The notes under the pieces were generated by a model, which was given only the letters and a program-made list of their open reading frames with translations, did no database searches and was not told where the DNA came from. Below, in pieces: positions 3,845-54,186 of a stretch of DNA of 64,000 nucleotides. The DNA lies in NCBI GenBank assembly GCA_964496815.1, contig CAZCAO010000001.1, forward strand, positions 17,803 through 81,802. The letters are read 5' to 3'. This stretch comes from an uncultured Candidatus Saccharibacteria bacterium (lineage in GTDB: Bacteria; Patescibacteriota; Saccharimonadia; CAILAD01; JADZBC01). Within the stretch, counting starts at the first letter, position 1; each line of letters starts with the position of its first letter. Made by a program: the position numbers and the translations under genes.

Positions 3845-4284
3845 TGCACGTTCTCGAGCAGCTGGAAAAAGATCTCGCAGCTGCCATGCGAGAGCGAGAC
3901 CAGATCCGCCTCCAGGTTTTGAGGCTGCTTAAGAATGCTCTCAAAAACTATCAGATTGAAGTCGGCCATGAACTCAGTTCTCAGGAAATGATGCAAGTTT
4001 TGCAAAAGGAAGCAAAAAAGCGCCGTGACTCTATCGAAGCATACACAAAAGCCAACCGTGATGATTTGGTGGCTGAGGAAACAGCTGAGCTCAAAGAAAT
4101 TGAGCACTACCTGCCAGCGCAAATGAGTGATGAGCAGGTGCGCGCAATTGTGCAAGAAGTCCTTGCCGCCAATCCTGACGCACAGATGGGACAGGTAATC
4201 GGTCAGGTTTTAGCTAAGACTAATGGCCAGGCAGACGGTGGCGTGGTGAGTCGCATCGTGAGTGACGAACTTAATACTAAGTAG
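3844..4284 (+). CDS. GatB/YqeY domain protein
   Basis: 146 aa with YqeY-like helical pattern; start overlaps rpsU stop (translational coupling). Confidence 0.75.
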   Translation: MHVLEQLEKDLAAAMRERDQIRLQVLRLLKNALKNYQIEVGHELSSQEMMQVLQKEAKKRRDSIEAYTKANRDDLVAEETAELKEIEHYLPAQMSDEQVRAIVQEVLAANPDAQMGQVIGQVLAKTNGQADGGVVSRIVSDELNTK

Positions 4285-50183: not shown

Positions 50184-50768
50184 TTAGAGCAAACCAAGCT
50201 TACGGGCACAGGCGGGCCATGGACTCCAGCCGCGGGCGGCTTGGGTTTCGCGCGCTTTAGCGTCCTGAACTTCAGGAGGTGCTAAGTGCGGATAGGCGTA
50301 ACCACCATAGTTGGCCCAGGTACCGAGGTTGTACTGGTAGGCGCCATAGTAACCGTTGCCCGAGTTGCGGGTATAGTCACCACCGGCTTCACAAAGGCGC
50401 AATTGCTCCCAGACGTCACCAGTCGCAACACCGATTTTTCGGTTCGATTGGTCGTCGATCTGTGCACTAGCCAGTGTAATCTGTACTGCCTGAGCAGCTG
50501 CAACCTTGGCTTCAGCTTCGGCTTGAGCCTTGGCGGCTTGAGCAGCCTTGATCGGAGCCATGACTTCTTGGTCGAAGTCGGGCTTCTGGGCTACAAGCTC
50601 TACAGCCTGAGGCGAATTTGTATTGATGTTTAGATTGTATGTTACTTTTGGTCTACTTACAGCTTGGGCGGCAGCCTCGGCTGTAGCGGTGGCGGGAATG
50701 TGTAGGGGGTTGGCCACCTGGGTTGCAAATAGTACTGCTACTATGAGCGATTGGATGTGTTTATACAT
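50184..50768 (-). CDS. Secreted resuscitation-promoting-factor (Rpf)-like transglycosylase
   Basis: Signal peptide; 'WEQLRLCEAGGDYTRNSGNGYYGAYQYNLGTW...RGWSPWPACARKLGL' aligns with Rpf domain '[27 protein letters not shown]...QGWGAWPLCSQKLGL'. Confidence 0.8.
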   Translation of the reverse strand: MYKHIQSLIVAVLFATQVANPLHIPATATAEAAAQAVSRPKVTYNLNINTNSPQAVELVAQKPDFDQEVMAPIKAAQAAKAQAEAEAKVAAAQAVQITLASAQIDDQSNRKIGVATGDVWEQLRLCEAGGDYTRNSGNGYYGAYQYNLGTWANYGGYAYPHLAPPEVQDAKARETQAARGWSPWPACARKLGLL

Positions 50769-50934
50769 GTGTATCTACGTATAGATACCCTCCTAAACTA
50801 CGTCCTTTTCCTAGTTAATGCTCCGCCCTAAAAATTTGGGCATTCGCGCACTTGGCTTAGAAACAAAAACGACCGTATTAAGGTAATCCTAACAGGTCGA
50901 GAGATATCTAAAATCAAGTGAACGCAGCTATATT

Positions 50935-50963
50935 AGCATGACGTAAGCACTTTGTCAAGCATT
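50935..50963 (-). promoter_or_regulatory. sigma70-like promoter for rpf-like gene
   Basis: Minus strand TTGACA-17-TAATAT. Confidence 0.45.
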
Positions 50964-51004
50964 TTGAAGCACTTTTTACCACCTAAAGAAAAGACGAATT
51001 TTTG

Positions 51005-51300
51005 TAAAAAAAGAACCACCTTGGCTATGAAGGTGGCAACGTAGCCTGGGAGGGGGTGGAATCCTCCCAGGCTACGCGAGCATTGACGAGGTGTGTCCCC
51101 CTCTTGCACACCTGACTGCTCTGGGGCGAAGTGACAGGGGCTGAGGGCCCGAAGCAGGAGGCCTGGCCTGGTGCCCATCAGCGGGTGTAAAGCGCTATCG
51201 ATGGGTGGGGCCTTTGCTCCGGGCCGACAGCTGTCGACTCTACGTTGAGTCGACTGAGGCGGTTTCCCCTGGTTTCCTCTAGCCAGATGGCTTGGTTGTC
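51005..51300 (-). ncRNA. GC-rich structured RNA with intrinsic terminator upstream of rpf-like gene; candidate ydaO-type c-di-AMP riboswitch
   Basis: Minus-strand RNA contains GGGGAAACCGCC, CCCGGAGCAAAGG, CCCCACCCAUCGAUAG blocks and several perfect hairpins; ends in CCACCTT..AAGGTGG + U7 terminator; possible promoter TTGACA-16-TAGAAT at ~51415-51448 (minus). Confidence 0.35.
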
Positions 51301-51479
51301 ACGAGCTTCTGAGCTTCGTCGGTTAGGTTTTTATCCAGCTCCTGCGTCTGGTCCGAACGAACTGTTTTGGAGAAGCTTGTGAAACGAGGCCGTTTGGCTT
51401 GAGTTGGTTTTATTCTACTCCGCTTACGTTTCGTGTCAACGCTTTTTTCGCGCCCAGGGTACTGCTATACTGGTAAGAT

Positions 51480-53264
51480 ATGAGAGACATCATTAAGATT
51501 ATTCGTTACTCCTGGAAGCTCTGGCGTTATTACCTATCAATTGCTTTTTTGGTCATCGTAGTAGCCTTGCTTGGTCTGGCTTCGCCGTTCTTGGTCAAGA
51601 TGATTGTAGACGGCTTGGTGGCAAACAGCTCCGGCGGTAATTATCAGGTAGGCTACTTTATAGTTATCGTTGCCCTTATCTTATTGAGCGACGTAGCGGG
51701 GACGATCATTTCGAACATCAATGGCCACCTGGGGGACATGATGTCTGTTAAACTCAACACATTGCTGAGCCAGCGCTATTACGATCACCTCATGTCATTG
51801 CCAATTGAATACTATGACAATGAAATCACCGGCAAAATCACGGCACGCTTAGAGCGTACGATTGGCACGATTAGCACGCTCATGCAGACCATGGCCAACA
51901 ACTTTGCCCAATTCTTCCTGACAACACTTATCACACTAGTATTTATTAGTATTTACTCCTGGCCAGTTGCGCTGCTGCTCATCGTGATTTTTCCTACCTA
52001 TATTTACATTACGCAGCTGTCGAGTCGGCGTTGGCAGCACGCACAGGAGGGCATCAATCAAGACCTAGATGTGGCGAACGGGCGTTTTGTTGAATCAGTT
52101 GGACAGATTAGGGTTGTCAAATCATTTGTAACTGAGGCTATGGAATCAGCATTCTTCCGTGGTAAGCGACGCAGCATTGAAGACCAGACCAAAGGCCAAT
52201 CTATAGTTTGGCATAAATACGACGTAGCCCGTAGGCTAGTGCTCAACGTCGTTTTTGCTTTGATCTACTGTTTTATTACTTGGCAGGCGTTCAAAGGGGA
52301 AATTACGCTTGGCGAATTCACCTTGCTATTGCAGCTTGTAACACAGGCTCAAATGCCGCTATTTGGCTCGTCATTCATTGTAGACGCTCTGCAGCGCGCT
52401 AAGGCGGGAAGTAAGGATTATTTTGGCGTTATGGCTCTTGAGCCAAGCATTAGTGATCAGGCTGATGCTAAGCCACTGAAGGTTAGCCGCGGTAAGGTAA
52501 GTTACCAGGCAATTTCGTTTGGCTATAGCCAGGGTAAGCAAGTTCTGAATGACATTAGCTTTGATATAGAGCCAGGACAAAAGATCGCGTTGGTGGGCGA
52601 GAGTGGTGAGGGTAAGAGTACGATTGCTAACATCATGCTACGCTTTTACGAGCTTGATGGTGGACGGATTCTGATCGACGACAAGGATATTAGCCAGGTT
52701 ACCCAGACGAGTCTGCGCAAGAACATTGGCGTGGTTTTCCAGGAGCCTGCCTTGTTTTCTGGCACCATCGCCGAAAACATAACATATGGTAGCGGCAAGG
52801 TGTCACGACAAAAGTTAGAGGCTGCGGCGAAGGCCGCTAACGCCCTCGGCTTTATTAAAAAACTCGAACATGGCTTTGATACTCAAATAGGCGAGCGTGG
52901 TGTGAAGCTGTCGGGTGGTCAAAAGCAGCGTATTGCCATCGCTCGGGCAATCCTCAAGGATGCCCCAATTCTTATTCTTGATGAGGCTACGAGCTCGCTG
53001 GATAGTAAGGCTGAGCGGGAAGTGCAAACAGCACTTGAGCGGCTCATGCAGGGGCGCACCACAATGATTATTGCTCACCGTTTGAGCACGATTGCTAACG
53101 TCGATGCAGTAGTCGGCATCCGTGGTGGCAAGATTGTAGAGATGGGCTCACCTGCCCAGCTGGCAAAAGGCAATGGTATTTATGCAGAGCTCCTAAGGCT
53201 ACAATCTGGCGCGGCAACCAAAGCTACCAAGGCTAAGCTTAAACAATTCGAGATCGTTAAGTAG
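51480..53264 (+). CDS. ABC exporter, fused permease/ATPase (MsbA-like)
   Basis: 6 TM + Walker A 'GESGEGKST', 'LSGGQKQR', 'ILILDEATSSLD'. Confidence 0.9.
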   Translation: MRDIIKIIRYSWKLWRYYLSIAFLVIVVALLGLASPFLVKMIVDGLVANSSGGNYQVGYFIVIVALILLSDVAGTIISNINGHLGDMMSVKLNTLLSQRYYDHLMSLPIEYYDNEITGKITARLERTIGTISTLMQTMANNFAQFFLTTLITLVFISIYSWPVALLLIVIFPTYIYITQLSSRRWQHAQEGINQDLDVANGRFVESVGQIRVVKSFVTEAMESAFFRGKRRSIEDQTKGQSIVWHKYDVARRLVLNVVFALIYCFITWQAFKGEITLGEFTLLLQLVTQAQMPLFGSSFIVDALQRAKAGSKDYFGVMALEPSISDQADAKPLKVSRGKVSYQAISFGYSQGKQVLNDISFDIEPGQKIALVGESGEGKSTIANIMLRFYELDGGRILIDDKDISQVTQTSLRKNIGVVFQEPALFSGTIAENITYGSGKVSRQKLEAAAKAANALGFIKKLEHGFDTQIGERGVKLSGGQKQRIAIARAILKDAPILILDEATSSLDSKAEREVQTALERLMQGRTTMIIAHRLSTIANVDAVVGIRGGKIVEMGSPAQLAKGNGIYAELLRLQSGAATKATKAKLKQFEIVK

Positions 53265-53326
53265 CCTTTAGATTTGCGAGATATTTTTGCCCTTTTGGGC
53301 TATCTGAGTATAGTCATTTATGAAAC

Positions 53327-53355
53327 GGGCTCCGAGAGGAGCCTTTGTTATTATT
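53327..53355 (+). terminator. Intrinsic terminator after ABC exporter
   Basis: GGGCTCC-gaga-GGAGCC followed by TTTGTTATTATT. Confidence 0.6.
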
Positions 53356-53504
53356 GAGAATTGGCTGTATTATATTCGTGTCCGCAACTGTGCCCGGAGG
53401 TACAAAATGAACATTCCTGCTTGGGGCATCGTGGCTCCACCCCAGAGCGACTTGAGAAATATCTCGGGTCGCTTCTCCATTCTATAAAAATCCCCTAAAT
53501 ACTA

Positions 53505-53533
53505 TTGACAAGCGTAAGCGACTATGCTATTAT
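53505..53533 (+). promoter_or_regulatory. Near-consensus sigma70 promoter
   Basis: TTGACA-17 bp-TATTAT. Confidence 0.6.
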
Positions 53534-53539
53534 ACATTC

Positions 53540-53953
53540 AACGTCATCGGCAGTGCGCACAGCGCGCGTCGTTGGCCACCCTCACGGAGAGGGGACGTGA
53601 CCCGGTATGCGGGCTTGGTCTTCGGACACACGTTTCAGCTGAGTCCTCGGACACGAGGTATGATCTAGGGCTGCTCGAAGCCCGCGGTCAAAAGCTCACT
53701 CCAAGTGACCCACGAGTCACTTGGTAGTCGGGAACATGTTCCTGACTAGTTTTGCGATCGGGTCGAGATGCGTGGCTTTGTCCACCACCCGAAAACAATC
53801 GAGAGGATGCAGTTCTGTGATCGCACACAGAATCCTTTCTTAGACGGGCTCTTCATCGAGTCGGCTCCCTTCGGGGTAGTTATCTCGATGAATCCCGTCA
53901 ATCCTATTTGAATTATCTACAAGAGGACTCCTTTCGGAGTCCTCTTGTTATTT
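53540..53953 (+). ncRNA. Unclassified ~415-nt GC-rich structured transcript with own promoter and terminator
   Basis: ~65% GC in a ~50% GC genome; many stems (CCAAGTGA/TCACTTGG, GGGCT/AGCCC, GGAACATGTTCC, GCGATC...GATCGC); ends with AAGAGGACTCC-tttc-GGAGTCCTCTT + GTTATTT; no credible ORF. Confidence 0.45.
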
Positions 53954-54186
53954 ACCTAGCTAATTACTACGGCAGTAGCCTAAACCATCTTGCTCATAAA
54001 AAACCTGTCCATTAGGGGTATGCCCCTAAGCGGCTTGAAATCTCCCAGCCCGTTTTGGTTATGCCTGAATCCATATTGCTGCTGGGGCGTATTCTCAGGT
54101 ATAATAATCAGCATAAGCTTTTATATTTTGTTCAATAAAGTGAGGGTGATATCACTAAGAAATTAGTACAAAAGGCGGCCACTACT

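Follow-up and report, generated by a model that had tools for sequence, protein, structure and literature searches.

RNAIII of Staphylococcus (hld), SR1 of Bacillus (SR1P) and SgrS of E. coli (SgrT) are dual-function regulatory RNAs, and in Actinobacteria rpf genes are preceded by ydaO riboswitches. Regulatory RNAs are, to our knowledge, almost uncharted in Saccharibacteria as in other ultra-small episymbiotic bacteria, and in the literature on sRNAs and structured RNAs of Saccharibacteria and Patescibacteria we found nothing that describes the element reported here. It lies upstream of an rpf-like gene in a stretch of 64,000 nucleotides from an uncultured Candidatus Saccharibacteria bacterium, which is referred to below as the window. 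A preliminary description of this stretch had taken the segment for a candidate c-di-AMP riboswitch of the ydaO type and had named, as a fallback, an independent sRNA with its own terminator. It is the fallback that is borne out, since promoter and terminator are conserved, the helices covary and purifying selection is seen; judged from these signals, the element appears to be a new, clade-restricted and independently transcribed structured RNA gene, equipped with its own promoter and terminator.

The segment between rpf and the ABC exporter gene

Syntenic loci were retrieved from Saccharibacteria MAGs by means of the flanking ABC exporter protein, with additional exact-protein look-ups. In 13 distinct related loci, several of them on short contigs, the element separates the rpf-like gene from the divergently oriented ABC exporter gene, and all evidence presented here is comparative. 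The 13 loci begin with relA/spoT and a small membrane protein (if the contig reaches that far); rpf and the element follow, both on the minus strand, and then the ABC exporter gene on the plus strand.

At its 5' end the folded segment of about 400 nt has a near-consensus promoter (51439-51412), at its 3' end an intrinsic terminator (51037-51006); its parts are listed in Table 1. The promoter at the 5' end had been overlooked in the preliminary description; its -35 hexamer and most of its -10 hexamer are invariant in alignment A1, and it was recovered by pattern in 12 related loci. The terminator with its U-run, on the other hand, is present just as had been described, reading GCCACCTT-CATAGCC-AAGGTGGT and then TCTTTTTTT from 51037 to 51006 on the minus strand. 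Compensatory changes occur in 3 of 7 pairs of its stem (helix 15), and a T-run lies 3' of the stem in every full-length homologue. About 1.7 promoter matches and 1.9 terminator matches are expected by chance per 2 kb, which makes a lone match not significant; the real evidence is the conservation of both signals across related loci, and both are intact in all seven copies that lack an open reading frame (ORF-less copies). The probable product is a discrete transcript. Its GC content, previously put at about 62%, amounts to 56% over 51005-51448, to 60% in the best 300 nt and to 69% in the core; the window as a whole has 49%. The predicted fold has a minimum free energy (MFE) of -169 kcal/mol (z = -7.4 versus 100 dinucleotide shuffles).

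Table 1. Features of the element and its surroundings (positions are those of the window)
Feature	Position	Strand	Details or basis
rpf-like gene, transglycosylase-like domain	50184..50768	-	PF06737, E = 1.2e-18
Structured 5' leader of rpf, ~155 nt	50769..50923	-	RNAalifold, 8 leaders
rpf promoter	50930..50958	-	TTGACA-17-TAATAT, TG extension
Inferred transcript, ~400 nt	51006..51406	-	5' end inferred from -10 box, 3' end from terminator U-run
Intrinsic terminator	51006..51037	-	8-bp stem, 7-nt loop, U-run (U7)
Hairpin Hc	51039..51077	-	14-16 bp helix, UUCCACCC-type loop
3' domain	51078..51126	-	GAGC/GCUC stem around hairpin Hd (GGUGUG..CACACC, 51090-51112)
Core hairpin, 92 nt	51140..51231	-	best-conserved module
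Core hairpin, outer helices			P1 GCUG/CAGC; P2 GGCCCGGAGCA/UGCUUCGGGCC; P3 AGGCC/GGCCU; then asymmetric internal loop
Core hairpin, apical helices			P4 CCCAUC/GAUGGG; P5 AGCG/CGCU, loop CUUUACACC
Hairpin Ha	51233..51254	-	GUCGACUC-AACGUA-GAGUCGAC
Linker	51255..51282	-	GAGGAA..CAGGGGAAACC; alignments A1, A3
5' domain	51283..51397	-	long irregular hairpin, four supported stem segments, variable apical part; RNAalifold, 7 sequences
RNA promoter, sigma-70-type	51412..51439	-	TTGACA-16-TAGAAT, 11/12 consensus positions
Probable extended -10 of ABC exporter gene	51463..51471	+	TGCTATACT; promoter assignment inferred

Neither neighbour seems to own the element as an untranslated region. The preliminary description had worried that the segment might be the 3' UTR of the ABC gene; as the ABC gene begins with an ATG at 51480 on the plus strand and is transcribed away from the element, it is not a UTR of that gene. 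The extended -10 motif (minus-strand reading AGTATAGCA) hardly varies in A1 and lies 8 nt before the ATG, the gene appears to have no Shine-Dalgarno sequence, and this suggests that the ABC mRNA is leaderless or nearly so, with a promoter that would stand back to back with that of the RNA. On the far side of the ABC gene, between it and a giant Laminin_G/fn3-type protein of 2016 residues, we also noted 922 nt (53265-54186) with no ORF of at least 120 codons and no Rfam match; gene callers place a 109-residue ORF in its counterpart in locus L080.

On the side of rpf, a second promoter had been reported at 50935-50963. The promoter is real, while its position had to be moved to 50958..50930. It is nearly invariant among relatives, and the loci L083 and L007, which have no element at this position, keep it along with the first hairpin of the rpf leader and the U-run. 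Because the promoter and leader of rpf persist without the element, the element is not the 5' UTR of rpf. The leader itself is structured, with a long-range helix around a terminator-like hairpin (CGACC..GGUCG plus a U-run, 50859-50900) and a second hairpin after it; RNAalifold on the 8 leaders gave 42 pairs, 9 of them compensatory, and no Rfam match was obtained for it. For any cis riboregulation of rpf, it is this leader of about 155 nt, and not the 400-nt RNA, that would be the candidate on the basis of the predicted folds. Between the GGAGG Shine-Dalgarno sequence and the AUG of rpf there is, moreover, a conserved 7-bp hairpin (GUAUCUA-UACG-UAGAUAC, 50766-50793, minus strand), in which one homologue shows a U-A to U-G change; such a hairpin would shorten the effective distance between Shine-Dalgarno sequence and AUG or would gate rpf translation.

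One further observation concerns the two promoters. In locus L005 (element promoter at about 3928-3961, minus strand) the sequence TTGACAAAGTGCTTACGG is common to the RNA promoter and the rpf promoter, and a weaker similarity is seen in the window. The RNA promoter may thus be a duplicate of the rpf promoter, or both may carry the site of a common regulator.

Structure, transcribed strand and selection

From 5' to 3', the RNA is predicted to consist of a long hairpin, a linker, hairpin Ha, the 92-nt core hairpin, a 3' domain, hairpin Hc and the terminator. In the 5' domain, 6 of the 14 pairs of helices 1-4 have changed on both sides. The linker sequence GAGGAA..CAGGGGAAACC is kept in 5 of the 7 ORF-less homologues, and its position is where the sister clade, to which we return below, has a small ORF. 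Hairpin Ha (helix 5) shows compensatory changes in 3 of 8 pairs, with a poor MAFFT alignment for L079, L001 and L086; the alignments are imperfect in the variable parts generally, that is, in Ha and in the apical region of the 5' domain. Helices 11-13 of the 3' domain are 86-97% paired. The Hd loop contains a conserved GGGG (51098-51101) that can form pairs with the CCCC at 51123-51126, and since RNAalifold picked the CCCC/GGGG pairing and the MFE fold picked the hairpin, we regard this as a candidate H-type pseudoknot. Hairpin Hc (helix 14) has both-side changes in 9 of its 16 pairs.

The individual stems named in the preliminary description are found again, as the hairpin GTCGACTC-AACGTA-GAGTCGAC is present at 51233-51254 and the 14-bp CGTAGCCTGGGAGG/CCTCCCAGGCTACG helix at 51040-51076. 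The three blocks which it had likened to conserved ydaO segments, namely GGGGAAACCGCC (51258-51269), CCCGGAGCAAAGG (51211-51223) and CCCCACCCATCGATAG (51195-51210), are likewise there.

RNAalifold on the seven ORF-less homologues gave 81 pairs, 25 of them compensatory. The cleaned structure has 91 pairs with 88.9% of cells paired, and the 26 pairs that changed on both sides compare with 10.3 +/- 2.4 in column shuffles (0 of 500 reached the observed number) and with 5-10 in slid-partner controls, statistics that come from few and related sequences (13 loci of one narrow clade, 7 of them ORF-less). The outer helix of the core could be followed in both clades, where it is 97.6% paired and has 4 pairs changed on both sides between G-C and A-U; its covariation score was reached by none of 500 shuffles. 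A manual helix table of the core holds 10 covarying pairs. With non-pairs set aside, the core helices contain 14 G-U cells versus about 3 genuine A-C cells, and this excess, along with a U-run found on the minus strand only, identifies the minus strand as the transcribed one.

The core is also where conservation goes beyond what pairing needs. It carries a sequence-invariant helix segment, CCCGGAG/CUYCGGG, and both this segment and its CAGCCC flank are conserved more strongly than pairing would require. The asymmetric internal loop is conserved, too. Compared with its relatives, the window shows only 30-39% identity at the 4-fold degenerate sites of the adjacent ABC gene, which are thus saturated, whereas the RNA as a whole is 48-83% identical to relatives, and the core 75-96% among ORF-less homologues. 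Conservation of the RNA next to saturated synonymous sites points to purifying selection at the RNA level.

Coding status, the sister clade and distribution

The preliminary description had called the segment ORF-free. Taken literally this does not hold, as there is an 81-codon ORF on the minus strand (50933-51178), yet this ORF passes straight through the terminator and is frameshifted in relatives. Homologues are separated by frameshifting indels, for example MGTRPGLLLRALSP in the window versus MGTRLRPPASGPQP in L004. The window element shows no 3-base GC periodicity, unlike the ORF of the sister clade, and no ATG occurs within roughly the first 230 nt. A coding reading of the window copy was dropped in view of the frameshifts and the lack of periodicity, and, given the latter together with the lack of an early ATG, the window copy is, on these sequence features, the RNA-only form.

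The situation is different in the sister clade (L003, L005, L006, L087, L089 and L090), where the transcript shares the promoter and the core hairpin, has a related 5' region and likewise a terminator, but carries an ORF of 37-46 codons (for instance L089:236-376) between the 5' region and the core. The peptides are diverse, with a common central G-x-SP motif and a C-terminal T/A-C-x-x-C(G). In the five ORFs that were measured (L090 was left out) GC3 is 0.91-1.00, as compared with 0.48-0.54 in the native genes of the window, and the periodicity is confined to the ORF. Homologues of the ORF differ mostly at codon positions 1 and 2; this codon-phased pattern is, as far as sequence can tell, a coding signature, with an unusual composition and a fast-evolving peptide. 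No match to the peptide was found in Pfam or NCBIfam, and a word-index search (5.8 billion) as well as an exhaustive search (1.8 billion) of two very large protein libraries returned only members of the same locus type.

The last codons and the stop of the ORF fall within a covarying hairpin (GCGAGA/UCUCGC versus GCGAGG/CCUCGC). We also observed that in L003 (157-753) and L090 (230-290) the end of the ORF (..CDGCG* or ..CDDCG*) is new, and that a copy of the older end (CACCTGCGAGAG..TGA) lies directly downstream as a non-coding hairpin arm. As the older end stays on as a hairpin arm, it is the hairpin that was kept and the coding end that was replaced in these two loci. As the outgroups are without the element, the ORF may have been either lost in the lineage of the window or gained in the sister clade.

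More distant relatives, with ABC proteins 64-69% identical, have no element at the syntenic position: L083 has a TetR gene and two fasciclin genes there, L007 has a short unrelated spacer, and the core covariance model (R1) found no match in either. The same model scores 104.6 bits in the window, where it finds only one copy, and it finds a single copy per locus in 11 of the 11 positive loci searched. A pattern scan of metagenomes for the core motif brought up 65 loci, none of them convincing by covariance model; the CTGNCGR prefix, which precedes CCCGGAG in every genuine core, is missing from all 65, and no further members of the family were obtained in this way. A pattern scan of viral contigs and blastn against phage and plasmid collections gave no match, so that these collections hold no sign of a mobile-element origin. 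Judging by the collections searched, the family occurs only in one narrow clade of Saccharibacteria and, as the metagenome scan added no members, it may be so young or so rare that strong claims are not warranted.

Two side observations belong here. In the tree of the ABC protein, L004 and L080 fall outside both clades (79-80% identity to the window), while by rpf protein (87-90%) and by RNA (72-83%) they group with the ORF-less type of the window, a discordance that suggests recombination or uneven rates within the locus. Furthermore, three low-GC metagenome contigs (L039, L060 and L073; e.g. L060:3040-3129) contain a hairpin, CCCGGAGCAAAG..TTACAC..CTCCGGGCTTCAGCCC, that looks superficially like the core. 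It has no covariance-model match, it lies directly downstream of an unrelated PAS-LuxR regulator gene, and it is probably unrelated to the core.

Possible roles of the RNA and comparison with known systems

No Rfam 15 family matched at gathering score anywhere in the 64-kb window, and relaxing the threshold to E<=10 over 50700-51700 brought up only generic hairpin noise (miRNA precursors). Nor was there a meaningful match in 12 related loci at gathering score or in four homologous contigs at E<=1. The ydaO hypothesis, in which an aptamer binds c-di-AMP and the terminator at 51037-51006 turns rpf transcription off, drew on a context like that of Actinobacteria, with an element and then a terminator upstream of an rpf-like gene. 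The preliminary description had itself proposed the Rfam search, taking a lack of matches to speak against a riboswitch, and RF00379 was found neither in the window nor in the homologous loci, at gathering score or at E<=10. A strong terminator and, downstream of it, a complete and conserved rpf promoter that relatives keep without the element separate the RNA from the gene it was supposed to control; the element does not sit in a 5' UTR with its platform coupled to a regulated gene. In addition, copies in the sister clade contain a translated-looking ORF, and alignment A3 offers no anti-terminator candidate that covaries with the terminator arms. We thus consider a ydaO-type riboswitch very improbable, and annotation by context ("rpf, so ydaO") is tempting but wrong here. 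An even smaller chance is left to a divergent housekeeping RNA (RNase P RNA, tmRNA, SRP RNA or 6S RNA) missed by standard models. It is true that the element is GC-rich, structured and about 400 nt long, and that its CCCGGAGCAAAGGCC resembles CCCGGAGCAAGGCC, a segment of E. coli M1 RNA. The RNase P idea was nevertheless dropped, as there is no covariance-model match and L001 and L086 do not keep the GAGGAA..CAGGGG block, a possible mimic of RNase P helix P4. ARAGORN found no tRNA or tmRNA in the window. Related genera, moreover, have no element at the syntenic site, and the element tolerates an ORF insertion, unlike an essential universal RNA.

It would also be conceivable that the element is a cis-acting leader of a new kind, in which read-through from the promoter at 51412-51439 past a regulated terminator (an attenuator) adds to rpf expression from tandem promoters. 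The common orientation, the mere 48 nt between the U-run and the rpf -35 hexamer, and the sequence common to both promoters in L005, which suggests common control, all speak for such a leader. We nonetheless find it unlikely, since the terminator is strong and conserved with no alternative anti-terminator pairing evident, rpf is served by a separate promoter and leader where genomes have no element at this locus, and the ORF-bearing variants look like complete monocistronic units. Quite unlikely, too, is a transcribed but functionless remnant, left to decay after a small-protein gene had lost its ORF. The narrow distribution would suit this reading, and so would the sister-clade ORF, whose place is taken in the window by no more than a short linker and one hairpin; a decaying sequence, however, would hardly show purifying selection and compensatory change among seven ORF-less copies next to saturated synonymous sites, or keep promoter and terminator in all of them. 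That the window copy encodes an unrecognised small protein is barely plausible: its 81-codon ORF and the peptides of sister-clade relatives may suggest it, but the passage through the terminator, the frameshifted homologues and the lack of codon-phase GC periodicity argue against it.

We therefore favour a functional stand-alone structured RNA that acts in trans, to which we give a probability of about 0.6, with most of the doubt resting on the action in trans. What is expected of an sRNA gene is found here in the form of sequence signals, i.e. an own promoter, an own intrinsic terminator, a non-coding transcript and a conserved structure under selection. In this model, a multi-hairpin, non-coding RNA of about 400 nt would be released as a discrete transcript and would serve as a protein-binding or base-pairing regulator rather than as a ligand-sensing leader of rpf. 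The conservation of the core sequence beyond pairing, together with the asymmetric internal loop, points to recognition by a protein, and RNA-RNA contacts could be made through the conserved loops that are rich in G or in C. As the promoters of the RNA and of the ABC exporter stand back to back, and the former lies just upstream of the rpf unit, the RNA is probably co-expressed with this cell-envelope locus. On the other hand, some read-through of the terminator into rpf is possible, and an RNAduplex search against the rpf leader, a crude one, returned only unrestricted long duplexes and is uninformative.

In the sister clade the transcript would encode a peptide of 37-46 residues as well, so that the family might be one of dual-function RNAs of which the window holds the RNA-only form. 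A more far-reaching version of this idea, and a long shot in our opinion, is a Saccharibacteria-specific dual-function family tied to the rpf/ABC-exporter locus, with the core hairpin as the functional agent, which would explain its survival in the window without the ORF, and with the sister-clade micro-ORF as an effector or signal peptide or even as an RNA adapted to the high-GC host. If this were true, the micro-ORF, fast-evolving and with a CxxC end, would be used in the interaction between epibiont and host; its GC3 of about 0.95 is actinobacterial-like, versus about 0.5 in the genes of its own genome. In any case, the locus provides a well-delimited RNA gene, supported by covariation, beside an Rpf-type transglycosylase and an ABC exporter, plausibly genes of the envelope and of host interaction. 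The coexistence of RNA-only and ORF-bearing forms amounts to a natural experiment on how the coding and non-coding functions of one transcript separate.

Among known systems, ydaO-yuaA (RF00379) is, like the element, structured and GC-rich, precedes an rpf-type cell-wall hydrolase gene and is followed by an intrinsic terminator. It differs in that the element has no covariance-model match, that a complete conserved promoter stands between the element and rpf, and that relatives' copies hold an ORF. The consensus obtained with RNAalifold and covariation, moreover, is a series of hairpins and would not follow the architecture of ydaO, whose fold is pseudo-two-fold symmetric with two ligand pockets. 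Precursor-peptide mRNAs whose 3' hairpins stabilise or attenuate, as in lantibiotic structural genes (e.g. nisA), recall the sister-clade arrangement of a tiny ORF followed by stable conserved hairpins and a terminator, beside an ABC exporter gene; no modification enzymes, however, were seen near the element, the peptide matches nothing in Pfam or NCBIfam, and the hairpin module persists without the ORF in the window, which stabilisation of an mRNA alone would not explain. With raiA, OLE, HEARO and ROOL, medium to large structured ncRNAs with no assigned function, the element has in common that it is a GC-rich, ORF-poor intergenic island in a lower-GC genome with extensive covariation, but it matches none of these Rfam families, is built more simply from serial hairpins, and has a far more restricted distribution (13 loci of a single Saccharibacteria clade).

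With RNAIII, SR1 and SgrS the likeness is one of organisation only, as there is no sequence or structural homology. These are independent multi-hairpin RNAs of several hundred nt, and here too some members carry a small peptide and conservation is higher in the RNA parts than in that peptide; the divergent orientation of the element relative to the neighbouring operon recalls that of RNAIII relative to agrBDCA. The window copy departs from them in being ORF-less, and thus lacks the small translated ORF within a structured RNA that defines a dual-function RNA. By analogy, the element would work most like a classical independently transcribed sRNA, with a likeness to dual-function RNAs at the level of the family.
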